Shown here piece after piece: positions 9,749 through 42,450 of a stretch of DNA of 64,000 nucleotides. The stretch comes from an uncultured Planctomycetaceae bacterium. GTDB lineage: Bacteria > Planctomycetota > Phycisphaerae > SM23-33. The position numbers and the translations under genes are program-made. Where the stretch lies: the NCBI GenBank assembly GCA_964428895.1, contig CAYRZU010000002.1:14595-78594 (forward strand), written 5' to 3'. Each line of letters starts with the position of its first letter. The stretch's first letter is position 1. Under the pieces are notes generated by a model. It saw only the letters and a list, made by a program, of their open reading frames with translations. It was not told where the DNA came from and did no database searches.

Positions 9749-11223
9749 TCTGCGGGCCGGCTGGCGCTGTCCCGAGCGTTGACGATGGCCTCGGCCTCGA
9801 TCAGGTTGATCGACGGGCAGGTGACGTACTCGACGTCGACGCTCTCGACCACGCCAGTGGCGCTCATCTTGAAGCTGCCGGTCAGCTCCAACCCAAACCT
9901 CGGCTGCGTGACCGTCAGGGCCGGGCCGCCCTCGGGCGGGTAGGTCAGCTCCATACCAATCGGCCCGTGGCCCTCTTCCAAGCGCTGGCGCCACCAGAGC
10001 ATTTCCTGGCGGAGCGTATCGGGCAGCCACTGGGCCTCGCCGAGCGCGGGCAGGTGGAGCTGTTCGGCGGCGGCGGCGGTGGCCCAGAAATCCTCGGCGT
10101 TGTCGAACCGTTGGCTGCGCGCGTGGGCGCGGGCGAGGTAGCTGGTGGCCATGGCGGCCATGGCCTCGTAGAACTTGGCGCCGGTGACGCGCACGTTGGG
10201 CGTGACCTGGGGATTGCCCTCGGCGTCCTTGGCCCACCTGGCCTCGGGCAGAATCATGTTGGCCCGGAACCAGGCCAGGAAGTCATCTTCCAGGGCGATG
10301 ATCTCGTCGGCCAGGGCCCGGGCCTTCTCGCCATTGGCGTTTGTGCTGATCTCATAAACGTACGCTTCGATCAACTTGCGGTGCTTGCCGCCCTCGCCGT
10401 CGTAGAGGTAGTGCAGCACGGACATGCTCTGCATGTAGCAGGCCCAGACCTTGCCCTCAGCCAGCAGTTGGTGCCAGCCGGCCCCGTCGATGTTTAACAG
10501 TTGCTCCAGGGGGATGAAGTTGGGCGATTCCATCACGGCGCTGTGGAGGTAGCTGACGGTCAGCACGCCGTCGACCCAGCCGTCACCGGTCCACATCAAA
10601 TTGAAGAACAGCGACCCGTGTCCTTCGTCCAGCCAGGTCGGCCAATGGCGATTGACGTTGCCGGCCTGGGCAATCTCCACGGCCGCGAACTGATGGAACA
10701 GTTCATGGTACATCAGCGGGCAGGAGACCATGCTGATGGCGCCGAAGTTGGCGTCGGAGGTCTGCATCATGAAGCGGGCGCCGACGCTATCGCCGTGGCC
10801 GCCCATGAACAGGCCCGGCATGGTCGGGTGCCCGCCGGCGGCGACGTAGTCTTCCTTGCTGCCGAACAGGAAGGCGAGCTTGGGGAAGTTGATGGGGAAG
10901 TGCTCGGCCTCGAAGCGGTCGGCGTAGTAGTCGTAGAGCGCTTCAATCCGCACCGCGAAGTCGTAGGTGGTCGCGTGGGCCATCTGGCTGTAGATGGAGA
11001 AGTGCCCGGTGCGGATGCCCGGCAGGCCGAAGACCGGATCGAGTCGTCGCCACCCATACGGCAGGGGCGCCTGGTCGGTCGTGGGTCGGCTGGTGGAGGC
11101 CTGGTCGGTGGTGGGCTGGCTGGCGGCTGGGTCGGTGGGCTGCTTGTCTTGGCAGCCTGGCGGCAGCGCGAACAGGCAAAGGGCCATCATCGGTAGCAGC
11201 TGCATCTTGAGCGATCGAGCCAT
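9745..11223 (-). CDS. Lipoprotein with HExxH motif (putative zinc metallopeptidase)
   Basis: True start ATG at 11223 (MARSLKMQLLPMMALCLFALPPGCQ, lipobox) with a GAGGA RBS. HELFH in MYHELFHQF. The 835-aa ORF call (to 12252) is an artefactual antisense extension. Confidence 0.55.
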   Translation of the reverse strand: MARSLKMQLLPMMALCLFALPPGCQDKQPTDPAASQPTTDQASTSRPTTDQAPLPYGWRRLDPVFGLPGIRTGHFSIYSQMAHATTYDFAVRIEALYDYYADRFEAEHFPINFPKLAFLFGSKEDYVAAGGHPTMPGLFMGGHGDSVGARFMMQTSDANFGAISMVSCPLMYHELFHQFAAVEIAQAGNVNRHWPTWLDEGHGSLFFNLMWTGDGWVDGVLTVSYLHSAVMESPNFIPLEQLLNIDGAGWHQLLAEGKVWACYMQSMSVLHYLYDGEGGKHRKLIEAYVYEISTNANGEKARALADEIIALEDDFLAWFRANMILPEARWAKDAEGNPQVTPNVRVTGAKFYEAMAAMATSYLARAHARSQRFDNAEDFWATAAAAEQLHLPALGEAQWLPDTLRQEMLWWRQRLEEGHGPIGMELTYPPEGGPALTVTQPRFGLELTGSFKMSATGVVESVDVEYVTCPSINLIEAEAIVNARDSASRPAD

Positions 11224-11418
11224 GCTGTGGTCCTCGTAGGATTGTCCCGGCGTGGCGGGTGGCCCCCCGGGTACGGGTAGCCCTGGCCGGCGCGGCGCCG
11301 GATGAGCGGGGCATTGTACCGTTCCCGGCCGGCCGGAGCGAACGTTGACTTCTTTGAGCTGACCCGGGCGCGTAGAATCCAGGGCCAACGCACGGCTGGA
11401 TGAAGCCAGGAGGTCCTT

Positions 11419-13812
11419 GTGCACATTATTGAAACCGACGCACCGATTCTCGAACCCGAAGACGGACTGATCCTGGGCAACGGCGATCTGTCGGTCAGTA
11501 TCTATCAGAAATCCGATTTGCTTATCTGGCGGTTCGGCAAGGTGGACGTGTGGGACCGCCGCCTGGACCTCGACGCCTGTCCCGCGCCCGCCCACATCGA
11601 CGAATTGGCCCGCGGCATCCGTGATGAAGGCTGGGTCAGCCACGAGTTCGTCTACGGCGAAGGCCAAGCCACGCGCGGCAAGCCAAAAGACGAAAAGCGG
11701 ATGAAGGAAATCTGCGACGGCTGGCCCGCTTACGCTCGTCGGCCCTATCCGTGCCCCAAGCCGGTCGGTGAACTGGCGATGCACCTGCCGGTCGACATGT
11801 TGGGCCAGCGGATCCATCAGCGGTTGACGATTGAGAAAGGCACAGCCGAGATCACGATCTCCTTCGATAACGGCGTGTCGATTGAGCTTGAGTGCTTCAT
11901 CGCGCCGTCGCCGAATGTGTTGGTGGTGCGATGGCAGGTGCATAACTGGAACGCCGATACCGCCATGGGCATCCACGGGCCGGTATGGTTTTCGCTCTAT
12001 CGCTGGGCCGACCCGCCGGTGGAGCAGTTGGCGGCCTCGCTTCACACCCGGGCCCGCTATCGCTACTTCTGGGGCTCGATCGAATCGGGCGAATGTACCA
12101 CGCTGCCCGGGCCCGAAATGCGAGAGCTGGACGGGCGACTCGTCATCGAGCAACGGTTCTATCCCGACCTGGAATTCACCGAGGGCTTTCGGACCATCCT
12201 GGCGCCTTACGTAACGAGCCTGGGTATTGAACGGGCCGATATCTACACGCAAGACGCCGTGCTCAATATCTTCGCCAACGAGGATGTGCTAAGTGGCGAG
12301 CTGGCCGTGGCTGTTTCGACCAGCACCGATGACGGCGGGGCCGAAGCGGAGTGTCAGCGGACCCGAGCGCTGCTCGAGCCGGGCCTGTCCGCGGCCACGG
12401 CCCAACTTGAAGACGCCACCGTCGCCTTGGCCGAAGAGTTCTGGGGCCAGTCGTCGGTGCAGATCGACGACCCTGTCCTGGAAGACGCCTGGTACGAGAT
12501 GCTGCACTTCCGCCGCTGCACGTGTCGGGGGGACGTGGTCGCGCCGGGGCTGGCCTTGCCCAGCACGGTTCGGGACTATTCCCTGTGGCACGGCGACTAC
12601 CACATGAACATCAACTACCAGATGGGGTTCTGGGGCGACTACGCGTCCAACCACGTCGACCTCGGCGACGCGTTCTTTCCCGGCATGGCCCACATGGTGG
12701 AGATCGGCCGCAAATTGGCGCGGGACTACTGGGGCTGTCGGGGCACCTTCATTCAGTTGGCGGGCTATCCGTTCCCGGTGGCGGGCGACCCTTACGGAAC
12801 GGGCGCGCTGTGCCGCATGACCTACATGACCGGCTGGGTGGCCGGCTACTACTGGTGGCGCTACCGCTACACCATGGACCGCGACTGGCTGGCCGAGACC
12901 GGCTACCCGGTCATTCGCGACTGCGCCCTGTTCTACGCCGACTTCCTGGAGAAGCGCGACGACGGCCTGTATCACGCCTGGCCCAGCATGCAGGGCGAAT
13001 CGATGTTCACCGGCAAGGTCGAAGACTACACCGATCAGCCGCAAGTGGTCCGCCACGCCCGTTACGGCTTGCAGTGCGCCGTCCGCGCGGCCGAGGCCCT
13101 GGACACGGACCCCGAGTATCGCGACCAGTGGCAGGACATCCTGGATAACCTCGTCACCACCGACGACCTCGACGCCCTCGGCTTCAGCGACGAGAAGAAG
13201 CGCCGCTACGCGCTGATCCAGCCGGCGTTTCTGGGCGCCGACATCGGCGACGGCCGAATTCCCGACAAACTCGACGAGCCGGACTATCTGGCCCCCAGCC
13301 GTAATGGCTGTGGGTTCTTGGCCTGGCCCACCATGATGCACATCCACAACGACGCCTTCGACCCCGAGCGCGACATCCCGACCTTTGCCGAGAACCTGCG
13401 GCGCTGGCGCCGCCCGGGCGGAATGATCCGCGCCTGGAACATGGCCGGGCACAGCTACATCGGCGCCTACGTGGAGAGCCTGGGGATGTTGGCGCCGCTG
13501 CAGGCGTTCCTGCTGCAAAGCTGGGACGAAGTGATTCGCATCTTCCCCCTCTGGAAGGCCGACATCGACGCGGCCTACACCAACCTGCGCGCCGAAGGCG
13601 CGTTCTTGGTCAGCGCATCCTGGAAAGGTGGCGCCCTCCAGTCGGCCACGATTCACGGCGAGCGGGGCGGGCCGTGTCGCCTCGAATGGCCATGGGACAG
13701 CGCGCCGGCCATTACGTGCGACGGCCAATCCGTGGATGTCACCGGCGAGGACCACGGGGTGGTCGCCTTCGACACCGAGGCCGGTCAGACCTACGACCTC
13801 AAGAAGGGGTGA
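11419..13812 (+). CDS. Putative glycoside hydrolase, GH95-like / six-hairpin superfamily
   Basis: 797 aa with a GTG start 5 nt after AGGAGG. N-terminal LILGNGDLSVSIY...W.RRLDL resembles the GH95 N-terminus (GNG.LG...W). Family call is tentative. Confidence 0.45.
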   Translation: MHIIETDAPILEPEDGLILGNGDLSVSIYQKSDLLIWRFGKVDVWDRRLDLDACPAPAHIDELARGIRDEGWVSHEFVYGEGQATRGKPKDEKRMKEICDGWPAYARRPYPCPKPVGELAMHLPVDMLGQRIHQRLTIEKGTAEITISFDNGVSIELECFIAPSPNVLVVRWQVHNWNADTAMGIHGPVWFSLYRWADPPVEQLAASLHTRARYRYFWGSIESGECTTLPGPEMRELDGRLVIEQRFYPDLEFTEGFRTILAPYVTSLGIERADIYTQDAVLNIFANEDVLSGELAVAVSTSTDDGGAEAECQRTRALLEPGLSAATAQLEDATVALAEEFWGQSSVQIDDPVLEDAWYEMLHFRRCTCRGDVVAPGLALPSTVRDYSLWHGDYHMNINYQMGFWGDYASNHVDLGDAFFPGMAHMVEIGRKLARDYWGCRGTFIQLAGYPFPVAGDPYGTGALCRMTYMTGWVAGYYWWRYRYTMDRDWLAETGYPVIRDCALFYADFLEKRDDGLYHAWPSMQGESMFTGKVEDYTDQPQVVRHARYGLQCAVRAAEALDTDPEYRDQWQDILDNLVTTDDLDALGFSDEKKRRYALIQPAFLGADIGDGRIPDKLDEPDYLAPSRNGCGFLAWPTMMHIHNDAFDPERDIPTFAENLRRWRRPGGMIRAWNMAGHSYIGAYVESLGMLAPLQAFLLQSWDEVIRIFPLWKADIDAAYTNLRAEGAFLVSASWKGGALQSATIHGERGGPCRLEWPWDSAPAITCDGQSVDVTGEDHGVVAFDTEAGQTYDLKKG

Positions 13813-14369: not shown

Positions 14370-14398
14370 TTGGCGGGAGGGGGTTTCCGTGCTAGAAT
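14370..14398 (+). promoter_or_regulatory. Sigma70-type promoter: -35 TTGGCG, 17-nt spacer, extended -10 TGCTAGAAT
   Basis: TTGGCG at 14370-14375, TG at 14390-14391, TAGAAT at 14393-14398, ATG at 14458. A G7 run lies in the 5'UTR at 14425-14431. Confidence 0.45.
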
Positions 14399-14457
14399 CA
14401 CGGTCTGGACGGAGTTCTGATCGTGGGGGGGCATTTCGAACACAAGGAGTGACTGTC

Positions 14458-16686
14458 ATGAGGCGAATCGTTTTCGCGATGGTGGCGCTATCTTTGGCGT
14501 CAGCGGCGTCGGCCGGTGTGGCGGCGGCGGATGACTATGACCTGACGTGGCTGGGCCTGGGCGGCGCGGACTTTATTAAGGACGACGGCACGGTCTACGC
14601 CGAGAGCTTCCAGATCGCCGACAACGATCTGGTCCTCGGCCGCAACCGCATCTTCTACGGCACGGCCAACAACTACGGCGACGCGTGGTGGGTCTCGGAC
14701 GGCACGACCACCACTCGAGTCGGTCTGTTCGACACCGACCACACCCGCAGCACCGACAATCAACAGAAGACCTACGTACTGGGCTTCTATGGTGGCGGGC
14801 AGTTCGCGGCCGGCGAGTCGGAGAAGTACCGTCCCGACGGCAGCAAGATTTCCAACACGCCCTGGGTGTATGACGGTACGCAGACCATCGCGTTGGGTCT
14901 GACCGGCGCCGTCTATACGGACGCCGGCGGGTACCTCTACCCCAGCCGCTGGGAAGGCGCCGCCAACGGCAACTTCCTGGGGATGAACACCATCTACAAC
15001 GGCGGATCCACCAACATGGGCACCGCCACGTGGGTCTACAACTACGCCACCGACACCCACACCAGCGTGGGATTGACCGGAGCGCAGTACATTCGCGATG
15101 ACGGCTACGTCAAGACCCGCGCCGGGCGCCTCTCTCCCGACGGCAACTACGCCTTCGGGCGGACCTATCTGTACAGCGGCTCAACGGAGAACGGCACGCA
15201 CGGCTGGCGGTATGACGTCAGCACCGACACCACGGTGCAAATCGGCCTGACCGGGGCGGGGTTCGTTCGCGACGACGGCTACATGGAAGTCGAGATCCGC
15301 CGCGGCAACGCGTCCGGTCAGCTCAACGGGCTATCCCGCCGCTACAGCGGCTCGACCGACATGGGCCGCGTGGCCTGGATCTTCGACGGGACCAGCACAA
15401 CCCAGATCAGCCCCACCGGCGCCGAGTTCAGCCGGGCCGATGGCTACCGATACGAAGACGCCTGGTACATCAACGCGTCCGGCCAGGTCGCCGGCGAAGC
15501 CACCACCTACGACGGCGCCGCCACCGGCGGCAAGCGGGCGTGGTTCTACAACGGCACGACCACGCAGGTCCTGGACGGCCTGCAGGGGGGGTACTTCGAG
15601 AAGTCCAACGGGCACAACCAAGCCCTGCCCAACGGCCTCAACGCGGCCGCTCAGATCACCGGCACGAGCTATCGCTACAACGCCTCGGACACCTACATCG
15701 GCCTGCAGGGCTGGTTCTACGACAGCGCCACCGATACCACCGTCGCCTTGGGCCTGACCGATCCCGCCTACACGCGGGTGTCCGACGACAAGCAGTATCA
15801 CTATCCCCACGAACTGAGCGCAACGGGACTCGTGCGCGGCAGCAGCGACCGGTACGACGGCCTGTTCAGCAAGGGCCGTTGGGTCTACGACTGGGACACC
15901 GACATGACCTACGAGTTGGCGTTCTCGACCCGCTCGGACGGTTACTATGACACCCCCAAGTTCGAGTTCACCAACGACGGCGACGGTCTGGTCGGCTACT
16001 ACGAGCTCTTCGATGCCTTTGACGTTTCGCAAGGCTATAGCTTGTTCTACTGGACCATCGACCGGGCCACCGATACCCCCACCTTCGTGGACCTGGAAGA
16101 CCGAACCGCCCTGGCGGCCATGGAAGACCTCTTCGCCCTCTACTACAAAGGCTGCGGCATGAACGCCGGCGCCTTATTCGCCGGCACGGGCACCATGGCC
16201 GACGGGTCGCAGGGCGCGTATCTGCTGACGCCGGTTGAGACGAGCGTCCCGGGCGACTTCGACGGCGACGGCGACGTTGACGCCGACGACGTCGACATCC
16301 TCTGCGCCAACATGGGCGGCGACCTGAATCCCTACGACGTCAACAGCGACGGCGTGGTGGATGAAGACGACATGATCTACCACATCGAGACGTTGGTCGA
16401 GTACGACACCAACGGCGACGGCACGGCCGACGGCAACGGAACGTATCGGGGCGACTTCAACCTCGACGGCGTGGTCAACGCCACCGACCTGCAGATCATG
16501 AAGGGCGGCTTCGGCGCGGTCGGTGGCTATGCCGACGGCAACGCCAACTGCGACACCGTGGTCAACGCCACCGACCTGCAGATTCTCAAGAGCACGTTCG
16601 GCCAGACCGCCTCGGCCGTGCCCGAACCGTTGACGGTCGGCCTGCTGGGCCTGGGCGGCCTGACGCTCTTGAGACGACGGAAGTAG
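14458..16686 (+). CDS. PEP-CTERM-anchored surface protein with about 10 degenerate ~50-aa tandem repeats and C-terminal dockerin-type Ca-binding repeats
   Basis: RBS AAGGAG. Signal peptide MRRIVFAMVALSLASAASAGVAAA. Repeats T..VGLTG..Y.RDDGY. C-terminal DFDGDGDVDADD...DFNLDGVVNATDLQIMKG...NCDTVVNATDLQILK (dockerin type I-like), then VPEPLTVGLLGLGGLTLLRRRK (PEP-CTERM). Confidence 0.8.
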   Translation: MRRIVFAMVALSLASAASAGVAAADDYDLTWLGLGGADFIKDDGTVYAESFQIADNDLVLGRNRIFYGTANNYGDAWWVSDGTTTTRVGLFDTDHTRSTDNQQKTYVLGFYGGGQFAAGESEKYRPDGSKISNTPWVYDGTQTIALGLTGAVYTDAGGYLYPSRWEGAANGNFLGMNTIYNGGSTNMGTATWVYNYATDTHTSVGLTGAQYIRDDGYVKTRAGRLSPDGNYAFGRTYLYSGSTENGTHGWRYDVSTDTTVQIGLTGAGFVRDDGYMEVEIRRGNASGQLNGLSRRYSGSTDMGRVAWIFDGTSTTQISPTGAEFSRADGYRYEDAWYINASGQVAGEATTYDGAATGGKRAWFYNGTTTQVLDGLQGGYFEKSNGHNQALPNGLNAAAQITGTSYRYNASDTYIGLQGWFYDSATDTTVALGLTDPAYTRVSDDKQYHYPHELSATGLVRGSSDRYDGLFSKGRWVYDWDTDMTYELAFSTRSDGYYDTPKFEFTNDGDGLVGYYELFDAFDVSQGYSLFYWTIDRATDTPTFVDLEDRTALAAMEDLFALYYKGCGMNAGALFAGTGTMADGSQGAYLLTPVETSVPGDFDGDGDVDADDVDILCANMGGDLNPYDVNSDGVVDEDDMIYHIETLVEYDTNGDGTADGNGTYRGDFNLDGVVNATDLQIMKGGFGAVGGYADGNANCDTVVNATDLQILKSTFGQTASAVPEPLTVGLLGLGGLTLLRRRK
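16254..16686 (+). repeat. Shared dockerin-like/PEP-CTERM C-terminal module, copy 1 (coding repeat family)
   Basis: Nucleotide- and protein-level similarity to 21516-21959, 22811-23249 and 24940-25272. Confidence 0.7.
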
Positions 16687-16708
16687 TCTCCGCCCTCAGC
16701 GCATCGAA

Positions 16709-16740
16709 GCGGGCATCCTTCATGGATGCCCGCCTTCTGG
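16709..16740 (+). terminator. Perfect 10-bp stem hairpin after the PEP-CTERM gene (putative terminator)
   Basis: GCGGGCATCC (16709-16718), loop TTCAT, GGATGCCCGC (16724-16733), then CTTCT. Confidence 0.45.
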
Positions 16741-16787
16741 GGCCGCGTCTGGTACACTCCCAGCCTACCCACATCAGGATCGACGAT

Positions 16788-18188
16788 ATGCCCAAGCCGA
16801 ATCTGTTGTACATCATGACCGACCAGTGTCGCGCCGACGCCCTGGGTTGCAGCGGCGGATGGGTGCGGACGCCGAACTTGGATCGCATCGCGGCTGAGGG
16901 TGTGCGATTCACCAACGCGGTGACCAACTGTCCGATCTGCATCCCCGCGCGGGTGTCGCTGGCGACCGGCCGATATCCGCACAACACCGGCGTGTGGGAC
17001 AACTTCGAGTACGACATGCCGGCCGAATGGCCCACCTGGATGCAGGCCGTCCGCGAGGCCGGCTATCGCACCAGCCTGTTCGGCAAGACCCACCTCCACC
17101 ACCACAGCGGCGATCTGCGCGACCGCGAGCATCTGATCCGCGCCTACGGTATCGACGACATCGACGAAATCACCGGCCCGCGCGCCAGCACAGACTGCAC
17201 CTGCGCGATGACGGCGAACTGGGAGGCCAAAGGGCTCCTGAAGCCCTACCAGGCCGACTACGCCGAACGCTTCGCCAACAAGCCATGGGTCGTGCGCCCC
17301 TCCGTCCTGCCGCTGGAGCACTACGCCGACGTCTACGTCGGTCAGCAGGCCAAGCGCTATCTCGAAAGCTACCGCCGCGATCAGCCGTGGTGCTGTTGGG
17401 TGAGTTTCGGCGGCCCACATGAACCGTGGGACACCCCCGAGCCCTATGCCAGCATGTATCGGCCGGAGGATATGCCTCCGCCGGTCGGCTCGCGCGACGC
17501 GCTGATCGACGGCGCCGCCAAGGGCCACCTCGGCCGCGTGATGGCGCACTACGCCCCCGAGGCCCTCTCGGCCGACGACATCGCCGCGATGCGGGCCAAC
17601 TACGCCGGGAACGTTACGCTGATTGACGACCAGATCGGCGAGATTCTCGCCGCCATCGAGGCCCGGGGGGAACTGGACAACACCGTGATCGTCTTCTCTT
17701 CCGACCACGGCGAAATGAACGGCGATCACGGGCTGATCTACAAGATGCAGTTCCTCAACGGGGCCGTCCGCGTGCCGCTGCTGGTCCGCACCCCGGCCAC
17801 CGCCGCCGCGGGAGGCGGCGCGGTCTCCAACTCACCGGCGGAGTGGTTCGACATCGGGCCGACGCTGGTGGAACTGGCCGGCGGCGAACTGAAGCACCAA
17901 CAGTTCGCCCGTTCGCTGCTGCCGACGGTCAACGATCCGTATCGCCAGCACCGGCCGTTGGCGGTCTCCGAGTACGCGCGGGAAGTCATGATCATGGACG
18001 AACAATGGAAGCTTGCGGTCAACCGTGACGGCGAGCCGTACCTACTGTTCGACCAGGTCAACGATTCCGAAGAACTCATCAACCGCGTTGCCGACGCAGC
18101 CGTTGCCAACGTGATCGACCAGATGCGGGCCGAACTCCTCAGCCACCTACTGCAAACGCAGATTGACCGAGCCGGGCCCGGCGTGTAG
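16788..18188 (+). CDS. Formylglycine-dependent sulfatase (Cys-type)
   Basis: MPKPNLLYIMTDQCRADALG. CPICIPAR (C-x-P-x-R). GKTHLHH. Start ATG 16788 after AGGAT. Confidence 0.9.
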   Translation: MPKPNLLYIMTDQCRADALGCSGGWVRTPNLDRIAAEGVRFTNAVTNCPICIPARVSLATGRYPHNTGVWDNFEYDMPAEWPTWMQAVREAGYRTSLFGKTHLHHHSGDLRDREHLIRAYGIDDIDEITGPRASTDCTCAMTANWEAKGLLKPYQADYAERFANKPWVVRPSVLPLEHYADVYVGQQAKRYLESYRRDQPWCCWVSFGGPHEPWDTPEPYASMYRPEDMPPPVGSRDALIDGAAKGHLGRVMAHYAPEALSADDIAAMRANYAGNVTLIDDQIGEILAAIEARGELDNTVIVFSSDHGEMNGDHGLIYKMQFLNGAVRVPLLVRTPATAAAGGGAVSNSPAEWFDIGPTLVELAGGELKHQQFARSLLPTVNDPYRQHRPLAVSEYAREVMIMDEQWKLAVNRDGEPYLLFDQVNDSEELINRVADAAVANVIDQMRAELLSHLLQTQIDRAGPGV

Positions 18189-18229
18189 ATGATGGCCATC
18201 AGGATGAAGCAACCGAGGAAGGACGACGT

Positions 18230-19015
18230 ATGAGTTCGGACAGTATCCAGAAGGTGCAGGTGGGGGGCTGCGGGCTGGAGCTGTGTCGGGTCGGCATCGG
18301 CTCGGGGACGGTGGGGGGCGGTAAGGAGTCCAACCAGACGCGGCTGGGCGATGACGTCTTCAATGATCTCCTGCGATACGCCTACGACCGCGGCATTCGG
18401 TATTTTGATACGGCTGACGACTACGGCAGCCATCGGCACATGGCCCAGGCCCTGGCCGACAAACCCCGCGACAGCTACCAGCTTGTCAGCAAGTTCGCGC
18501 CCGTCGGCTCGCAGCCGGGAGCAGACCTGCTCAGCCCGGACCTGCCCATCGAGCGGTTCCTGGCTGAATTGGCCGCCGACGTCATCGACCTGCTGCAGAT
18601 CCACTGCGTGGCCGACGCGGATTGGACCGACCAGCATCGAGCCCAGATGGATGCGATGGCTGAGTTGAAGGCTCGCGGCGTCATTGGCGCTCACGGCGTG
18701 TCCTGTCATACGCTCGTGTCACTGGAGACTGCCGCCGACGAGCCATGGGTCGACGTGATCCACGCGCGGATCAATCCGGTCGGCACGAACATGGACGCCG
18801 AACCGGCCAAGGTCGTCCCCGCGCTCCGACGCGCCAAAGCCAACGGCAAGGGCGTCATCGGCATGAAGCTGTTCGGCCAGGGGGAGTTCAGCGCCGCCCA
18901 GCGCGCCGAGAGCATCGACTGGGTGATCGGCCTGGACTGCGTGGACGTGCTGTTGGTGGCGTTCGAGTCGACGGCGGAAGTCGATGAGTTCCTGGCCGTT
19001 GCCGGGCTCGGTTAG
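18230..19015 (+). CDS. Aldo/keto reductase family oxidoreductase
   Basis: GIRYFDTADDYG, LLQIH, AKR-like length and layout. Its stop overlaps the RBS of the next sulfatase. Confidence 0.75.
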   Translation: MSSDSIQKVQVGGCGLELCRVGIGSGTVGGGKESNQTRLGDDVFNDLLRYAYDRGIRYFDTADDYGSHRHMAQALADKPRDSYQLVSKFAPVGSQPGADLLSPDLPIERFLAELAADVIDLLQIHCVADADWTDQHRAQMDAMAELKARGVIGAHGVSCHTLVSLETAADEPWVDVIHARINPVGTNMDAEPAKVVPALRRAKANGKGVIGMKLFGQGEFSAAQRAESIDWVIGLDCVDVLLVAFESTAEVDEFLAVAGLG

Positions 19016-19024
19016 GAGACCCCC

Positions 19025-20350
19025 TTGGATCGGCCGAACATTCTCACCATCCTGGCCGACGACCTGGGCTGGGGCGACCTGGGCCTACACGGCTCAGACA
19101 TCCGCACGCCCGTCATCGACGCACTCGCCCAAGGCGGCGTGGAGCTCACCCAGCACTATGTGTGTCCCATGTGCACGCCTACGCGGGTGAGCCTGCTGAC
19201 CGGTCGGCACCCCGGCCGATTCGGGCCGCACGCGACGGTTCCTTCCAACGCGCCGGTCCTGCCGGATGGGTACTCCACGTTGGCCACGGTTCTGCGCGAC
19301 GCCGGTTACGACACCGGCCTGTTCGGCAAGTGGCATCTCGGGTCGGACCCACGGTACGGGCCCAACCAGTTCGGGTTCAACACCGGCTACGGCAGCCTCG
19401 CCGGCGGAGTCGACCCGTTCAACCACCGCTACAAGCGCGGCGAGTTCTCGGTGACATGGCACCGTAACGGCCAGTTGGTCGAGGAGCCCGGCCACGTGAC
19501 GGACTTGATCGTCCGCGAGGCCCGTCAGTGGATTGAAAGCCGCGATCGATCGTGGTTTGCCTACGTGCCCTTCACGGCTGTCCACGTTCCGGTCAAGCCG
19601 ACCGACGCATGGTTGGCCCAATACGAGGATGACACGTTCGACGACGATCCGCTCAGGGATCAGTCCTTCAAGAAATACGCCGCCTACACCAGCCACATGG
19701 ATCACGGCATTGGCCAACTGCTCGAATCGCTCGAACGGACGGGCCAGCGGGATAACACGTTCATCGTGTTCGCCTCCGACAACGGCGCCATTAACGATTG
19801 CGCCCTCCACAGCACGGACCAATACCCCGGCCACCAGGAGGCCTACCCGCGACTGGGCTCGAACGCGCCGTTCCGGGGTGTCAAAGCCCAGCTCTACGAA
19901 GGCGGCGTCCGCACGCCGACGGTCGTCAACTGGCGCGGGCGATTGTCGGCAGGGCAGATCGACCGGCCGGTGCAGGTGGTCGACTGGATGCCCACCCTCA
20001 CGGCGCTAACCGGGGCCCAGCCGGCCACCGATCCCCAATGGGACGGCCAGGACATTTGGCCGTTGATCGCCGGGGACGCGCCCGAGCCATCCGAGCGCAG
20101 CCTGTTCTGGAACTTCCACGGCGGCGACGCGCTGGGCATGCGCCACGGCGATTGGAAGCTGATCGTTCGCACCGTCGACGGCGCCGAGCATCGCGAGCTG
20201 TTCAACATTGCCGACGACCCCACCGAACAGCACGACCGCGTGTCCGACTGCCCGGCCATCGTCAACGATCTGGCTGACAGGATCGCCGAGCAGCGCACTC
20301 GCGACGGCACGAGCGCCCGGGGCGACGTCGATTCGCCCATGGTCTCCTAG
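19025..20350 (+). CDS. Formylglycine-dependent sulfatase (Cys-type)
   Basis: TTG start 7 nt after AGGAGA. NILTILADDLGWGDLG. CPMCTPTR. GKWHLG. Confidence 0.9.
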   Translation: MDRPNILTILADDLGWGDLGLHGSDIRTPVIDALAQGGVELTQHYVCPMCTPTRVSLLTGRHPGRFGPHATVPSNAPVLPDGYSTLATVLRDAGYDTGLFGKWHLGSDPRYGPNQFGFNTGYGSLAGGVDPFNHRYKRGEFSVTWHRNGQLVEEPGHVTDLIVREARQWIESRDRSWFAYVPFTAVHVPVKPTDAWLAQYEDDTFDDDPLRDQSFKKYAAYTSHMDHGIGQLLESLERTGQRDNTFIVFASDNGAINDCALHSTDQYPGHQEAYPRLGSNAPFRGVKAQLYEGGVRTPTVVNWRGRLSAGQIDRPVQVVDWMPTLTALTGAQPATDPQWDGQDIWPLIAGDAPEPSERSLFWNFHGGDALGMRHGDWKLIVRTVDGAEHRELFNIADDPTEQHDRVSDCPAIVNDLADRIAEQRTRDGTSARGDVDSPMVS

Positions 20351-20375
20351 TCCGGGGACGCCGCTGCGGCGAGCG

Positions 20376-20404
20376 CTTGTGTGTTCGCGATGGCGTGTTA
20401 TAAT
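20376..20404 (+). promoter_or_regulatory. Promoter with consensus extended -10 TGTTATAAT upstream of the FGE-domain PEP-CTERM gene
   Basis: TG at 20396-20397 and TATAAT at 20399-20404, with a weak -35 (TTGTGT). ATG at 20466 after AAGGAGAG. Confidence 0.45.
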
Positions 20405-20465
20405 GCGTTTCGCAGGATCCAAGTCTCTTGCGAGGGCGGGGACACCAACAGCAAGGAGAGAGACG

Positions 20466-21959
20466 ATGAAACGGTTACTGACTGTAATTGCAGTGCTTAC
20501 CGTGTGCGCCGGCGCCGCGAGCGCCGGGACGCGGGCGGACCTGTCAGGCGATTTCGTGGCCGATTTCAGCACGGCCATGGATATGCCTTTCTTGAACGTG
20601 GGCAATCTGGGCAACCTCGACAACACCTACGACGGCGGCAAGGGCGCCGTGGCCTACGCCTACGACGTCGGCAAGTTCGAGGTCACCACCGGCCAATACA
20701 CCGAGTTCCTCAACGCCGTCGGGGCCACGGACACCTACGCGCTGTTCAACGACCGGATGGCCGACCCCGTACACGACGACGCGCACCCAGATGATCTCCC
20801 CTTCGGCGGGTGTAACATCCAGCGCGCCGGCACAGCCGGCAGCTATACGTACTCCATCGCCGCCGGTTGGGAAGACCGTCCCGTCAACTACGTCAGTTGG
20901 GGCGACGTGTGCCGATACGCCAACTGGATGAGCAACGGCATGCCCACCGGCGCCCAGGACCTGACCACCACCGAAGACGGCGCCTACTTCCTCAACGGCG
21001 TCACGGACAGCACCGGCCTCAAGGCGGCCGTCGCCGCACGGAACTCCCCCGGGGCCGGCGAGCGGTTCTTCTATCTGCCCACCGAGGACGAATGGGTCAA
21101 GGCCGCCTTCCACGCCAACGACGGTGACACCGGCAACTACTTCGACTACGCCACCAGTTCCGACACGCTGCCGGGGTACATCGCCGACGGCGGATCGGTC
21201 ACCGATCCGGACCCCGGCAATATCGCCACCTACGACGGCGACGGCGGTGTCGATGGCATCGGTGCTCCTTACTACCGCACCGAAGTCGGCGAGCACGAGA
21301 ACACCGATAGCCCGTACGGTGCATTCGATATGAACGGCAACGTGGGCGAGTGGACGGGCGGCCTGGGCTTCGGGTCGTTCGCCATCGTTCGCAACGGCGA
21401 GTACGCCTACGGGCCCGACAACCTGCACGCCGATTACCGCCGCATCCGAAGCCTCACCCGCGAAAGCGGCGACATCGGCTTCCGCCTGACCAGCGTGGCC
21501 GCGAGCCTCCCGGGCGATTTCGATGGCGACGGCGAGGTCGGCGCTCCGGATATCGACGAGCTGTGTGCGAACGTCGGAACGATCGATCCGGTGCTGATCG
21601 AGAAGTACGACATGGATCTGGACGGGGACGTTGATGAAGACGACATGATCTACCTGGTGGAGAACCTGGTGGAATACGACACGGACGGCGATGGGGAATC
21701 CGACGGCGCCGGCACCTACGTAGGTGACTTCGACCTCAACGGCGTGGTCAACGCGACCGACCTGCAGATCATGAAGGGCGGTTTCGGCGGCGTGGGCGGC
21801 TACGCTGACGGCAACGCCAACTGCGACATCGTGGTCAACGCGACCGACCTGCAGATCATGAAAGCCAACTTCGGCCTGTCCGCCTCAGCTGTCCCGGAAC
21901 CGCTGACGATTGGCCTGCTGAGCCTGGGCGGCCTGGCGCTGCTTCGGCGCCGCCGGTAG
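20466..21959 (+). CDS. FGE-sulfatase/SUMF1-domain protein fused to dockerin-like repeats and a PEP-CTERM anchor
   Basis: Signal peptide MKRLLTVIAVLTVCAGAASA. PVNYVSWGDVCRYANWM, LPTEDEWVKAAF, YGAFDMNGNVGEWTGG (SUMF1 signature). C-terminus has GFRL where FGEs have GFRC (recalled). Then dockerin-type repeats and VPEPLTIGLLSLGGLALLRRRR. Confidence 0.75.
   Translation: MKRLLTVIAVLTVCAGAASAGTRADLSGDFVADFSTAMDMPFLNVGNLGNLDNTYDGGKGAVAYAYDVGKFEVTTGQYTEFLNAVGATDTYALFNDRMADPVHDDAHPDDLPFGGCNIQRAGTAGSYTYSIAAGWEDRPVNYVSWGDVCRYANWMSNGMPTGAQDLTTTEDGAYFLNGVTDSTGLKAAVAARNSPGAGERFFYLPTEDEWVKAAFHANDGDTGNYFDYATSSDTLPGYIADGGSVTDPDPGNIATYDGDGGVDGIGAPYYRTEVGEHENTDSPYGAFDMNGNVGEWTGGLGFGSFAIVRNGEYAYGPDNLHADYRRIRSLTRESGDIGFRLTSVAASLPGDFDGDGEVGAPDIDELCANVGTIDPVLIEKYDMDLDGDVDEDDMIYLVENLVEYDTDGDGESDGAGTYVGDFDLNGVVNATDLQIMKGGFGGVGGYADGNANCDIVVNATDLQIMKANFGLSASAVPEPLTIGLLSLGGLALLRRRR
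21516..21959 (+). repeat. Shared dockerin-like/PEP-CTERM C-terminal module, copy 2
   Basis: PGDFDGDGEVGAPDIDELCANVG...DFDLNGVVNATDLQIMKGGFGGVGGYADGNANCDIVVNATDLQIMK...VPEPLT. Confidence 0.7.
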
Positions 21960-21983
21960 AGGACACGAACAAAGGAGATGTGC

Positions 21984-23249
21984 ATGACTGGAAGCACGAT
22001 CACGAAGCTGGTCATCGGGCTGTTCACCGCCGTTGTCGCTGTTTCGTCGGCCGAGGCGGCCCTGCAGGTGTACGATTACCGTGACAACATTCTCGCCCCC
22101 CGGGTCGAGTACTTTGCCTACGATCAGACTATGATCGCGCTGAACGTCAAGACCGGTGACTTCCAATACGTCTACGAGGTCGGGCATATCGCCGACGGCG
22201 TCAATGAAGTGGAGCGCTACAATCAGGACGGGTTCGTCGACAACAATCTGATCCCCGAGGCCGAGCTCACCGACGACATGGTCTGGTTCGCCCATCGGGA
22301 CGTGAAGGTCCCCGGCGCGGCCACCGGCGATGCGGTGCTCTTCGAGACCCCGACCGGCGGCGCTGGCGGGCAACTTGACGCCGACGGCGCGATCTACAAC
22401 CCCGCTCGGGTGCCGGGCTCGAATCCGAACACGTGGGTGGCCCACGATTGGTACTGGGCCGATCAGGACCTCCCGGGCGGAACCGCGGCGCTTCCTTACC
22501 CGACCGACGGTGCGTCGGCCGGGACCGTTGACGGCACGTTGAGCTACAATAATGACTCGGCGACCGGTTATACCGGCGCCCTCACCAGTGGATTCGGCGG
22601 CTGGGGCCACGCCAATGGATGGCCGTTCGGCGTCTCGCCTTCAACGGCTACGGTCGCCTTCCAACTGGAAGAGGCCGACGGCACGCACTACGGGTGGGTG
22701 GCCTTTCGCCACAACGGCGACCGCGTCCACCAGTGGATTCACGGCTGGGCGTACCAGACCACGCCCTTCGTGGCGGCAGAGCTGACTTGGGATTCCAGCA
22801 GCGAACCGGGCGATTTCGACGGTGACGGCGACGTGGACGCCGACGACATCGACATTCTCTGCGCCAACATGGGCGGCGACCTGGACCCCTACGATCTCGA
22901 CGGCGACAGCGACGTCGATGAAGACGACATGGTCTTCCTGGTGGAGACCCTCGTGGAGTACGACTCCGACGGCGACGGGACTGCCGACGGGACCGGAACG
23001 TATCAGGGCGACTTCAACCTCGACGGCGTGGTCAACGCCACCGACCTGCAGATCATGAAGGGCGGCTTCGGCGCCACCGGCGGCTATGCCGACGGCAACG
23101 CCAATTGCGACACCGTGGTCAACGCCACCGATCTGCAGATCCTCAAGACCCATTTCGGCCTAACGGCTGCGGCCGTGCCCGAACCGCTGACGGTGGGCCT
23201 GTTAGGCCTGGGTACGCTCGGTCTGCTGCGTCGAAGGGCCGAGGCCTAG
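21984..23249 (+). CDS. PEP-CTERM surface protein (unknown N-terminal passenger domain, dockerin-like module)
   Basis: Second ATG chosen (6 nt after AAAGGAG), giving a signal-like N-terminus. C-terminal module as in paralogs, ending VPEPLTVGLLGLGTLGLLRRRAEA. Only 25 nt downstream of the previous gene. Confidence 0.7.
   Translation: MTGSTITKLVIGLFTAVVAVSSAEAALQVYDYRDNILAPRVEYFAYDQTMIALNVKTGDFQYVYEVGHIADGVNEVERYNQDGFVDNNLIPEAELTDDMVWFAHRDVKVPGAATGDAVLFETPTGGAGGQLDADGAIYNPARVPGSNPNTWVAHDWYWADQDLPGGTAALPYPTDGASAGTVDGTLSYNNDSATGYTGALTSGFGGWGHANGWPFGVSPSTATVAFQLEEADGTHYGWVAFRHNGDRVHQWIHGWAYQTTPFVAAELTWDSSSEPGDFDGDGDVDADDIDILCANMGGDLDPYDLDGDSDVDEDDMVFLVETLVEYDSDGDGTADGTGTYQGDFNLDGVVNATDLQIMKGGFGATGGYADGNANCDTVVNATDLQILKTHFGLTAAAVPEPLTVGLLGLGTLGLLRRRAEA
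22811..23249 (+). repeat. Shared dockerin-like/PEP-CTERM C-terminal module, copy 3
   Basis: PGDFDGDGDVDADDIDILCANMGGDLDPYDLDGDSDVDEDDMVFLVETLVEYD...DFNLDGVVNATDLQIMKGGFGATGGYADGNANCDTVVNATDLQILK. Confidence 0.7.
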
Positions 23250-23367
23250 ACGTCCAAGGCGAAGGGCGGCGACGTGGGCCGCCCGCTGTTGTGTCCGGCC
23301 GGGGCGTGGTCGAACGCCGGTCGGCAAAGGGAGAGACGCTGCGCGGTCTCAATAAGGGAGCGACGTC

Positions 23368-25272
23368 ATGATCGAGCGAATTGTGGTGGTGCTGACGGTG
23401 GTTGGGGTATGCGCGGGGACGGGCTACGCGGGCTTGACCGCTACCGGGGACGTCACCCCGGCCGATCCGGCGACCTGGACGGACGCCACCTCCGTCTACG
23501 TGGGGCAGACCGGCACGGGGGCGGTGGACATCACCGCCGGGGACACCACCGATGCCTACGCCGCCCACGTGGGGGATGAATCAGGCGCCTCCGGAGAGGT
23601 CACGGTCGACGGCGCGGGGTCGAGCTGGGATATCGTCTACCCACTCCGGGTCGGCGATGAGGGCGACGGTCTCCTGACCATCACCAACGGCGGCACGGTC
23701 AGCAGCGGCAGCATGAACTACGTCGGGCGTATGGCCGGGTCGACGGGCGAGGTCAACATCGACGGGGCCGGCTCGTCGTGGACACACGACGGCCATATCT
23801 GGATCGGCGAATCTGGCCAGGGGGAAGTGAACGTCACCAACGGTGGGTCGTTCGTCAGCTACCATAGCGATGCCGGCACGATGGTCATGTTCGGTCTCTA
23901 TGCTGATTCAGTTGGCTCGATCACGGTTGACGGCCCCGGCTCGACCTGGACGGGGGACGCCGGGACCGGGCTCAGCGTCGGCGTATGGGGAAGCGGCACA
24001 TTGAGCATCACCAACGGCGGCAGCGTAGCCTTGGGCGGCCTGTCGAGTTCTATCGGCCTCTACGCCGGGTCGACGAACGTGGCGACCGTGGATGGCACGG
24101 GGTCTCTGCTGGACCTACAGGGCTCGCTGTCTGTCGGTAGTGGCACGCTGAACGTCACCGACGGCGGCCAGGTCGACGTAGGACGTTCGTTGATCACGAG
24201 GCTGGGCGCGGCCAGCGAGATTCACTTCGACAATGGGTCGGTCGAGGCCGGGGCGCTGTACGCGGCTCCGGGGCAACTGACCGGCGCGGGGATCGTCAAC
24301 GCCCACGGCCTCGCCAGCGACCTCGACCTGGTCTTCGACAGCGTCGACGACCTCACGCAGACCTTCATCTGGGACGACCTGCCCGGGCAGGATGTTACCG
24401 TGAACCTGGACGTGGACGGCCAGGGCGGCCTGGGTGCCGGACACGACGGCGTCGGGTCCATGACGATTGCATCCGGCATGGACGTCACGTCGGTGGAAGG
24501 CATCATCGGCTACAACGCCGGCTCGAACGGCGCGGTCACGGTCGACGGGTCCGGCTCGGCCTGGCGGAACGACGTGGAACTGACCGTCGGCTGGGAGGGC
24601 GCCGCGACGCTGACGATCTCCGACGACGCGCTCGTCACCGTTGGATCGTGGGGCTTGACCATCGACGAGAACAGCGACGGCGACAGCTTCGTCAACATGC
24701 GCGACGGCGGCATGTTGGCGCTGCGCGGGAACGCCGACGACTCGCTGGAGGATTTTCTGGACCTGATCGAAGGCACCGACGCCATCCGTTACTGGGACGG
24801 CGCCGCCGAAGACTGGGCCCCTCTTATCGGCGCGACCTACGGGGAGGACTACACCCTCGAATACATGACCGAAGGAGAACTACAGTATTTCACCGTGCTG
24901 ACCGTTTCGGCCTCTGATGACCCGGGGATCACGGACGGCGACCTGGACGATGACGGTGACGCGGACGCCGACGACATCGACCTCCTCTGCGCCAACATGG
25001 GCGGGGACCTGGACCCGTACGACCTCAACGAAGACGGTGTGGTGGACGAAGACGACATGATCTTCCACATCGAGATGCTTGTGGAGTGGGACAACGGGGT
25101 CGACAGCGGCGTCGGCACGTATCAGGGCGACTTCAACCTCGACGGCGTGGTCAACGCCACCGACCTGCAGATCCTCAAGGGCAACTTCGGGCAGGTCGCG
25201 GCGGCTGTTCCCGAACCGCTGACGATGGGCTTGCTGAGCCTGGGCGGGTTGGCCCTTCTGCGGCGCCGGTAG
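23368..25272 (+). CDS. PEP-CTERM surface protein with autotransporter-like beta-strand repeats (GxGxLxITNGGxV) and a partial dockerin module
   Basis: RBS AGGGAG. Signal peptide MIERIVVVLTVVGVCAGTGYA. Repeated TVDG.GS.W...L.VG..G.G.L.ITNGG.V units. C-terminus DADADDIDLLCANMGGDLDPYDLNEDGVVDEDDMIFHIEMLVEWD...DFNLDGVVNATDLQILKGNFG...VPEPLTMGLLSLGGLALLRRR. Confidence 0.7.
   Translation: MIERIVVVLTVVGVCAGTGYAGLTATGDVTPADPATWTDATSVYVGQTGTGAVDITAGDTTDAYAAHVGDESGASGEVTVDGAGSSWDIVYPLRVGDEGDGLLTITNGGTVSSGSMNYVGRMAGSTGEVNIDGAGSSWTHDGHIWIGESGQGEVNVTNGGSFVSYHSDAGTMVMFGLYADSVGSITVDGPGSTWTGDAGTGLSVGVWGSGTLSITNGGSVALGGLSSSIGLYAGSTNVATVDGTGSLLDLQGSLSVGSGTLNVTDGGQVDVGRSLITRLGAASEIHFDNGSVEAGALYAAPGQLTGAGIVNAHGLASDLDLVFDSVDDLTQTFIWDDLPGQDVTVNLDVDGQGGLGAGHDGVGSMTIASGMDVTSVEGIIGYNAGSNGAVTVDGSGSAWRNDVELTVGWEGAATLTISDDALVTVGSWGLTIDENSDGDSFVNMRDGGMLALRGNADDSLEDFLDLIEGTDAIRYWDGAAEDWAPLIGATYGEDYTLEYMTEGELQYFTVLTVSASDDPGITDGDLDDDGDADADDIDLLCANMGGDLDPYDLNEDGVVDEDDMIFHIEMLVEWDNGVDSGVGTYQGDFNLDGVVNATDLQILKGNFGQVAAAVPEPLTMGLLSLGGLALLRRR
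24940..25272 (+). repeat. Shared dockerin-like/PEP-CTERM C-terminal module, copy 4 (shorter; second dockerin repeat absent)
   Basis: See paralogous modules. Confidence 0.6.
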
Positions 25273-42433: not shown

Positions 42434-42450
42434 AGAGGTCCAACGCCAAG

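Follow-up and report, generated by a model that had tools for sequence, protein, structure and literature searches.

A Planctomycete PEP-CTERM Surface Protein with an FGE-Type Lectin Fold as the Probable Fixed Offshoot of a Retroelement-Diversified Family

Introduction

Proteins of the FGE-sulfatase/CLec1 type constitute the largest target class of diversity-generating retroelements (DGRs), with TvpA as the structural example, which has no activity as a formylglycine-generating enzyme (FGE) (PMC5758913). DGR targets are ligand-binding proteins with the C-type-lectin fold (PMC5758913, PMC6328139), and DGRs acting on remote targets have been documented (PMC5758913). In human FGE itself, the active site holds the pair Cys336/Cys341, and Cys365 forms a structural disulfide with Cys218 (PMC4505483). 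Here we describe an FGE-type gene located at positions 20466–21959 on the plus strand of a 64,000-nucleotide stretch (the window) of contig CAYRZU010000002.1, from an uncultured Planctomycetaceae bacterium. The original prediction had presented its product as an exported SUMF1/FGE-domain protein apparently without the catalytic cysteine, standing among six sulfatases. Comparison with its relatives points to a protein that probably binds a ligand at the cell surface and that probably derives from a family of DGR targets, its former variable region now being fixed.

Results

The gene and its product were divided into the following features (positions are those of the window; aa, residues of the product).

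20466..21959, plus strand: whole gene, 497 aa, comprising signal peptide, FGE-type C-type-lectin (CLec) head, two dockerin-like modules and PEP-CTERM tail
20453..20458, plus strand: Shine-Dalgarno sequence AAGGAG, 7 nt 5' of the ATG, read directly from the sequence
20466..20525, plus strand: putative signal peptide MKRLLTVIAVLTVCAGAASA, aa 1–20, with an ASA/G cleavage-type site, read from the sequence
20532..20591, plus strand: family-specific N-terminal motif RADLSGDFVADFSTAMDMPF (RADLSGDFVADF...), aa 23–42, present in most members of the family alignment
20592..21494, plus strand: FGE-subtype C-type-lectin-fold domain (the head), aa 43–343, from Pfam PF03781, an AF2 model and Foldseek
21315..21356, plus strand: Ca2+-site-2-like segment YGAFDMNGNVGEWT, counterpart of human FGE GLYNIVGNAWEW, from the family alignment with human SUMF1
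21381..21488, plus strand: former variable region AIVRNGEYAYGPDNLHADYRRIRSLTRESGDIGFRL, aa 306–341, homologous to the DGR variable region of family members
21513..21671, plus strand: dockerin-like module 1, aa 350–402, from Pfam Dockerin_1 and PDB 5lxv_B, 2y3n_B and 2vn5_B
21723..21875, plus strand: dockerin-like module 2, aa 420–470, from Pfam Dockerin_1 (best stretch aa 420–468)
21891..21956, plus strand: PEP-CTERM sorting signal VPEPLTIGLLSLGGLALLRRRR, aa 476–497, from TIGR02595 and Pfam PF07589

The start at 20466 is preferred over that of a longer TTG open reading frame (ORF) from 20208 because AAGGAG precedes the 20466 ATG, and the same gene call was obtained on three independent public metagenome contigs, with no nucleotide difference among the three assemblies. 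The ORF of the original prediction thus stands, and the peptides it quoted (PVNYVSWGDVCRYANWM, LPTEDEWVKAAF, YGAFDMNGNVGEWT and the GFRL end) are all found in the translation. The basic n-region, hydrophobic core and A-x-A of the signal peptide are kept across the family alignment, and we infer cleavage at ASA/G. Cys14, which might be a lipidation site, lies inside the hydrophobic core, at a position where most of the family has a cysteine, and the A-x-A site is then followed by RADLSGDxVVDF. The RADLSGDxVVDF motif resembles half a dockerin Ca-binding loop, and RADLSGDFVADFSTAMDMPF is missing in the DGR targets encoded in cis at loci L088 and L070 (see below). At the extreme C-terminus, VPEP, a hydrophobic helix and a basic RRRR tail complete, together with the signal peptide, the layout of a PEP-CTERM substrate; TIGR02595 scores 19.6 bits and passes its cut-off of 16, while PF07589, also at 19.6 bits, just misses its cut-off of 20.7. 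The modules between head and tail show the duplicated Ca2+-binding loop-helix arrangement of dockerins (Dockerin_1 24.2 bits, Pfam cut-off 22.9), and PDB dockerins match aa 344–400 with E values from 5e-4 (5lxv_B) to 0.01. Dockerin-like repeats and a PEP-CTERM end, both foreseen from the sequence alone, are in this way confirmed, and export with a sorting signal is supported. The "full FGE signature" claimed for the head was an overstatement: PF03781 matches aa 64–298 (E 1.7e-18) and covers profile positions 35–190 of 255, the C-terminal third of the domain being too diverged for the profile.

We scored the catalytic columns by adding a PDB-verified C-terminal fragment of human SUMF1 to the family alignment, since the family profile aligned true FGEs only over aa 123–153. 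In the human sequence (checked against PDB 1y1e, 2aii and others), Cys336 and Cys341 sit in GGSYMC-HRSYC-YRYR, and Cys365 is the cysteine of LGFRC. The original argument, that GFRL here in place of GFRC betrays a lost catalytic residue, does not hold, as the cysteine of GFRC is the structural Cys365 (PMC4505483). Its conclusion survives on corrected grounds: the Cys336 column is occupied by Tyr315 and the Cys341 column by a deletion, both within aa 306–341, and, independently of any alignment, the cysteines of the protein are residues 14, 116, 149, 367 and 453, with none in aa 150–366. Ser333, His337 and Tyr340 of FGE are likewise absent in the aligned segment, and none of 34 family members has a cysteine at either column. 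Judged by its sequence, the protein does not possess the cysteine pair of an aerobic SUMF1-type FGE. Asp288, Gly291, Val293 and Glu295 align with human FGE Asn293, Gly296, Ala298 and Glu300, which we take to be the ligands of Ca2+ site 2; D288, G291, N292 and E295 are invariant across the 34 family members (DxxGNVxEW segment).

The AF2 model of the head has a mean pLDDT of 93 and a pTM of 0.93. Foldseek searching of the PDB with this model gave TvpA (2y3c) as the best match (E 1.6e-10), followed by FGEs, CarF, EgtB, pFGE, PvdO and PorK, and TvpA was the top PDB match in both searches made. Taken together, profile and fold searches place the head about equally far from pFGE, CarF, CalU17, PorK, ToxD, TvpA, PvdO and true FGEs. 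With phmmer and the protein as query, the PDB yielded dockerin matches only, FGE-fold matches being insignificant, and the family profile was required. The protein collection holds more than 3500 relatives of the head at E <= 1e-3; those with a name are nearly all from metagenome-assembled genomes (MAGs) of Planctomycetota, mostly Phycisphaerae, with many from marine sediment, and they go under automatic names such as "formylglycine-generating enzyme" and "SUMF1/EgtB/PvdO family nonheme iron enzyme". A typical relative is about 350 aa long and consists of signal peptide, head and a PEP-CTERM straight after GFRVAEVPEP, the dockerin insertion being seen in the Phycisphaerae-type relatives of the window protein. 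Several copies occur per genome (at least six loci in MAG HyVt-337, one of them tandem). At L013 9965–14218 (HyVt-337) there are three tandem paralogues whose C-terminal variable segment differs from copy to copy, and on a Phycisphaerae chromosome (L053 9908–16152, OY776568.1) there are five, each with a different such segment. The core of the family alignment is well conserved, with invariant polar residues in its N-terminal two-thirds (E72, D89, R138, N153, E170, R192, E209, K212, H216, D288 and E295), and the stretch from RGGSF to GFRV is variable.

A search for DGRs was made. In metagenome sequence, the Asn-codon pattern was met with on 12 contigs, and several of these carry a full cassette of target, reverse transcriptase (RT) and template. 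At L088 (790–3571, minus strand) and L093 (2–2587, plus strand) the target is followed by an RVT_1 RT (IGNLTSQ, YMDD) and then by the template repeat. The targets of the intact cassettes, at these two loci and also at L089, L092 and L097, combine FGE-sulfatase with PEP-CTERM; the template repeat overlaps the 3' end of the RT, and its middle Asn block counts 3, 4 or 5 codons. In such members the variable region is the last ~36 residues before GFRV, which correspond to aa 306–341 of the window protein, and it is replaced by cDNA that is mutagenised at adenines and copied from a template repeat, which encodes GGSFNNNDNNLHASNRNNN(N)PTNENNNIGFRV, with the variable columns of the family matching the Asn codons of the template. 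All 19 differences within the L088 variable region are A-to-T or A-to-G. A first blastn screen for pairs of template and variable region was swamped by similarity among paralogues and dockerin/PEP-CTERM cassettes, and brought up a single real template repeat, that of L070 (CAYRVX010000073.1, a Planctomycetaceae MAG, 4058–5560), where a repeat encoding GSYRGLRGGSFNNNDNNLHASNRNNNPTNENNNIGFRVSE lies ~330 bp 3' of the family gene. Over its 123-nt core, the variable region departs from the template at 20 positions, every one of them a template adenine, and all 87 non-adenine positions agree, which is the signature of DGR mutagenesis. L070 contains no YxDD ORF, tblastn finding just a 3' stump of the RT (the last ~114 codons, 86% identical to the L093 RT), and we regard it for this reason as a degraded, decaying DGR and not as an intact one; its template repeat has one codon fewer than the variable region, and the two are out of register by one codon. 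The homology of the window protein to these proven DGR targets extends over the whole head, with 41% identity to the L088 target (E 5e-70) and 49% to the L070 target (E 3e-82). Loci L067, L021, L025, L020, L015 and L073 have no template repeat within 10 kb and show 1–5 non-adenine mismatches in 75 positions to the generic template. These are probably remote or recent DGR targets, and such footprinted members imply that trans or recent targeting occurs in the family. One of them, L015, shares MAG HyVt-337 with the closest genome orthologue of the window gene.

In the lineage of the window gene, aa 306–341 are fixed and no longer diversified. Within its 19-member subclade the variable region has an entropy of 0.57 bits against 0.52 bits for the core, compared to 2.60 against 1.03 bits in 98 more distant relatives, and YRRIRSLTRESGDIGFR is nearly invariant among relatives whose cores are only 66–92% identical. 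Non-adenine mismatches to the generic family template number 27 of 75 in the window gene and 21–31 of 75 in the orthologues L009–L012, against 0–5 in footprinted paralogues. The scaffold residues of the former variable region are kept (LHA..R..T.E...IGFR), and drift is seen at residues that the template normally enforces (RGLRGGSF has become AIVRNGEY), which is what a halt in retrohoming would lead one to expect. A DGR inside the window was considered and rejected: in the 64 kb, blastn found no second copy of the variable-region equivalent (21288–21503), a six-frame search no Asn-rich template-like ORF, tblastn with the L093 RT no match, and Pfam scans of the large ORFs no RVT_1. Within the 64 kb, the window gene has neither a cognate template repeat with adenine-only differences nor a nearby RT, and its near-identical copies show no hypervariability. 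A neighbor-joining (NJ) tree with the variable region masked puts the window subclade on a long branch, between the targets of the cis DGRs L088 and L093, which are basal, and a crown with scattered footprinted members; this tree is unbootstrapped and midpoint-rooted, which makes descent from a DGR target likely, not proven. The most probable ancestor of the window lineage is a DGR target in which the binding site was subsequently fixed.

The gene belongs to a co-directional run (14389–25272) that reads cassette protein, sulfatase, aldo-keto reductase, sulfatase, the 20466–21959 gene and two further cassette proteins, and that stands between glycoside hydrolase family 95 (GH95) and heparinase/alginate-lyase-like genes. 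By cassette we mean a C-terminal portion of ~150 aa, composed of the two dockerin-like modules and PEP-CTERM, that is shared by four exported proteins at 67–80% identity, each time behind an unrelated head. The window features concerned are as follows, cassette identities being those to the 20466–21959 product.

14389..16686, plus strand: cassette protein with unrelated head; cassette 74% identical; Pfam Dockerin_1 and PEP-CTERM
21978..23249, plus strand: next gene, 19 nt 3', an unrelated head on the same cassette; cassette 74% identical
23368..25272, plus strand: third cassette neighbour, with half of dockerin module 2 missing; cassette 67% identical
16722–18188, 19025–20350, 41048–42433, 52716–54104 (minus strand), 54119–55591 (minus strand) and 61934–63361: six Cys-type sulfatases (C-x-P-x-R), from Pfam and motif
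7580–9748: glycyl-radical enzyme (GRE), PFL-like plus Gly_radical, from Pfam

No Pfam family or PDB sequence matches the heads of the three cassette neighbours, which are for that reason surface domains of no recognised type; the protein of 21978–23249 has a weak PepA-like match. The first terminator-like hairpin (23264–23284) appears only after this latter gene, which is probably co-transcribed with that at 20466–21959.

The sulfatases carry the motifs CIPAR, CTPTR, CTPAR, CCPYR, CCPSR and CIPAR. None of the six has a signal peptide, even in the longest possible ORFs, and all start directly with the sulfatase fold, from which it follows that their maturation and desulfation would be cytoplasmic. 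For a radical-SAM enzyme, be it an anaerobic sulfatase-maturating enzyme (anSME) or a GRE activase, CxxxCxxC was sought in six frames in ORFs of at least 150 aa, and the one hit was a chance match in a GH130-like ORF; the maturase is presumably an anSME-type radical-SAM enzyme encoded elsewhere in the genome, outside the 64 kb. Over the ~1.7 kb 3' of the GRE gene (9748–11419), only ORFs without a Pfam match precede the GH95 gene. The GRE suggests that the window organism is anaerobic. Further glycan-degrading genes of the window are GH2, GH95, GH20, GH32, GH116, GH127, GH130-like and heparinase II/III/alginate-lyase-like. A URO-D-family gene lies directly 3' of a sulfatase gene (window 41048–43557), and in the orthologous HyVt-337 locus, at L004 5089–12796, the sulfatase, PEP-CTERM and FGE-like genes lie between two URO-D-family genes, in a block bracketed by two IS200-like Y1 transposase genes; sulfatase and URO-D may be a recurring pairing. 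On these points the original prediction was accurate: it named six Cys-type sulfatases, a GRE, no anSME-type maturase in the window, and a surface-sorted protein remote from the place where the sulfatases mature. The functional tie to the sulfatase cluster that it implied is weak. When a hidden Markov model (HMM) of the six window sulfatases was run against the ORFs of 79 family loci (1.14 Mb), a sulfatase was found within 10 kb in five, and co-localisation with sulfatases was rejected as a family trait. Among the close orthologues examined, only that of HyVt-337 has, besides the window gene, a sulfatase nearby, and the others adjoin PEP-CTERM proteins or genes for envelope-polysaccharide biosynthesis. 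The recurrent partner of the family is the PEP-CTERM surface proteome, not sulfatases.

Discussion

We favor, at a probability of roughly 65%, the reading of the window protein as a non-enzymatic ligand-binding protein of the cell surface that would have branched off, with its site fixed, from a family of DGR targets. The protein would first be exported by Sec, after which an exosortase would recognise the PEP-CTERM tail and leave the protein attached to the cell or embedded in its exopolysaccharide. The dockerin-like modules would form a stalk stabilised by Ca2+, or else let the protein dock into a shared assembly at the surface, and the former variable surface (aa 306–341) would bind one fixed ligand. 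Our best guess for this ligand is a carbohydrate, particle-surface or exopolymer ligand used in attachment, and not a sulfatase polypeptide. We also weighed the arginine-rich stretch of the former variable region (RRIRSLTR) as a sulfate-binding patch but set the idea aside, since its charge is offset by acidic residues at the other former variable positions. The "binding or lectin-like module" of the original prediction is thus borne out by the absent cysteine pair, by export and by membership of a family with proven DGR targets. To call the protein an interesting unknown function was too strong: absence of the cysteine pair is normal in the family, and the domain groups with a described class other than the FGEs, that of the FGE-type CLec1 DGR variable proteins (TvpA), which comes near to the outcome that the original prediction had itself named as a refutation. 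The oxidase of another substrate that it offered as an option finds no support.

Several points weigh against this reading. Ligand binding is attributed to the protein by homology. TvpA and true FGEs are not resolved from each other by Foldseek (E 1.6e-10 versus 3.6e-10, TM ~0.5–0.6), and the conserved N-terminal two-thirds of the head (TTEDGSY, DPDPGN, YYRTEVGE) could mark a second functional site. The direction of evolution is drawn from the unbootstrapped, midpoint-rooted NJ tree and the retained scaffold residues; a family that was non-variable from the start could instead have been taken over by DGRs. Finally, Pfam scans of window ORFs, several of which have no match, brought up neither an exosortase nor a cohesin.

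A more specific version of the favored reading makes the protein a surface glycan-binding protein (SGBP-like) dedicated to the locus, which captures sulfated polysaccharide for the local sulfatases and glycoside hydrolases. The run of genes on one strand, which includes two sulfatases and the aldo-keto reductase and is flanked by the GH95 and heparinase/alginate-lyase-like genes, fits this picture, as does the sulfatase two genes upstream of the closest genome orthologue (HyVt-337, L004/L009). A sulfatase within 10 kb is nevertheless found in the above five of 79 loci only, the other close relatives have neither a sulfatase nor a carbohydrate-active enzyme nearby (save for a CBM6/35 gene near P0012), and with six sulfatases lacking a signal peptide desulfation would be intracellular. 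We consider the dedicated role unlikely, if the best placed of the alternatives.

Still less probable is a different enzyme on the FGE fold, for instance an extracellular oxidase or modifier with a site other than the cysteine pair. The fold does host, besides FGE, the substrate-binding half of EgtB, OvoA and OvsA, and the strong conservation of the N-terminal two-thirds of the head, with its many invariant polar residues, speaks for this reading. The protein has, however, neither the cysteine pair nor the DinB-like iron-binding domain that sulfoxide synthases need (Pfam finds FGE-sulfatase, Dockerin and PEP-CTERM only), the region of the FGE active site is randomised in those homologues that share the core and are DGR targets, something hard to square with catalysis there, and an O2-dependent oxidase is at odds with an apparently anaerobic organism.

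We hold it very improbable that the gene is still under active diversification, with a DGR elsewhere in the genome acting on it in trans. Remote targets are documented (PMC5758913) and the family contains footprinted loci (at most five mismatches in 75) without a nearby template repeat, but the 27 non-adenine mismatches and the scaffold drift of the window gene, a segment conserved like the core in 19 relatives and identical in three assemblies, and the failure to find template repeat and RT in the 64-kb window all speak against ongoing diversification. The chance that the protein is a genuine FGE that matures the neighboring Cys-type sulfatases is slighter still, for although it matches Pfam FGE-sulfatase, adjoins two such sulfatases and has relatives named as FGEs, it lacks both catalytic cysteines (PMC4505483), is exported and surface-sorted away from six sulfatases without signal peptide, would require O2 in an organism with a GRE, and belongs to a family of which sulfatases are not the usual neighbors.

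The bare observation that opened this analysis is ordinary, because many FGE-like domains lack the cysteine pair and DGR targets of the FGE type have been amply described. What appear to be undescribed are the PEP-CTERM-anchored planctomycete family as a class of DGR targets and its fixed, dockerin-bearing offshoot: no paper in the literature searched treats PEP-CTERM together with DGRs. A review of the Planctomycetota (PMC12078418) has nothing on dockerin, FGE or anSME. The composite claim, of a large and apparently undescribed class of DGR-diversified PEP-CTERM FGE-lectin receptors in Planctomycetota, above all in Phycisphaerae, with the site of the window protein locked in, kept by purifying selection across several orders and carried on a shared dockerin-like stalk, is tentative, and we put it a little short of an even chance. 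If true, the family would offer a natural series that leads from active DGR target through decaying DGR (L070, with its RT stump and out-of-register template) to fixed receptor, and this gradient of diversified, decaying and fixed sites could be used to ask how DGR specificities become permanent receptors. The family would also link surface sorting by exosortase/PEP-CTERM with DGR hypermutation. The FGE-type names are misleading for thousands of planctomycete proteins, and could inflate the capacity for aerobic sulfatase maturation inferred for anaerobic sediment bacteria.

Comparison with Known Systems

Nearest to the window protein are TvpA (Treponema denticola variable protein 1, PDB 2y3c) and the "category b" FGE-sulfatase/CLec1 DGR targets of Wu et al. 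2018 (PMC5758913). With these it shares the absence of the FGE catalytic cysteines and a surface location, and its family includes bona fide DGR targets, with the variable region at the C-terminal end of the fold and an invariant GFRV. It differs in that neither template repeat nor RT (64 kb) nor adenine footprint accompanies the gene, and in the conservation of its former variable region. Structure-based sequence identity to TvpA is only ~19%. TvpA is anchored as a lipoprotein, whereas the window protein would be held by PEP-CTERM and dockerin-like modules.

The best PDB profile match (E 1.2e-7) is human pFGE/SUMF2 (1y4j), the non-catalytic paralogue of FGE, which has in common with the window protein the fold, the DxxGNVWEW segment, the ...GFRx end and the lack of the catalytic cysteine pair. 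In contrast to the window protein, pFGE is a soluble metazoan protein of the endoplasmic reticulum that keeps the GFRC cysteine, contains no dockerin or PEP-CTERM module and is unrelated to DGRs. FGE proper (SUMF1; PDB 1y1e, 2q17, 6muj, 5nxl) shares the fold, the RPVxxVSW and LPTExEW motifs and the Ca2+-site-2 segment; the window protein is set apart from it by the missing Cys336, Cys341, Ser333, His337 and Tyr340, and by a predicted extracellular location outside the compartment of unfolded sulfatases.

PorK/GldK (of the type IX secretion system ring), PvdO, CarF, CalU17 and ToxD again have the same fold and no FGE activity, and several of them are periplasmic or surface proteins. For PorK, PvdO, CarF, CalU17 and ToxD, Foldseek E values are 1e-7 to 1e-9 and profile matches 1e-5 to 1e-3, but there is no specific sequence tie, none is nearer than pFGE or TvpA, and their gene contexts are different. 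With PEP-CTERM/exosortase proteins (TIGR02595; flocculation protein PepA, NF033554) the window protein shares the signal peptide, the C-terminal VPEP, the hydrophobic helix and the Arg-rich tail; here the difference is that no exosortase was identified by Pfam in the scanned ORFs of the window, and the likeness extends to genomic surroundings, the window gene being clustered with other PEP-CTERM genes.

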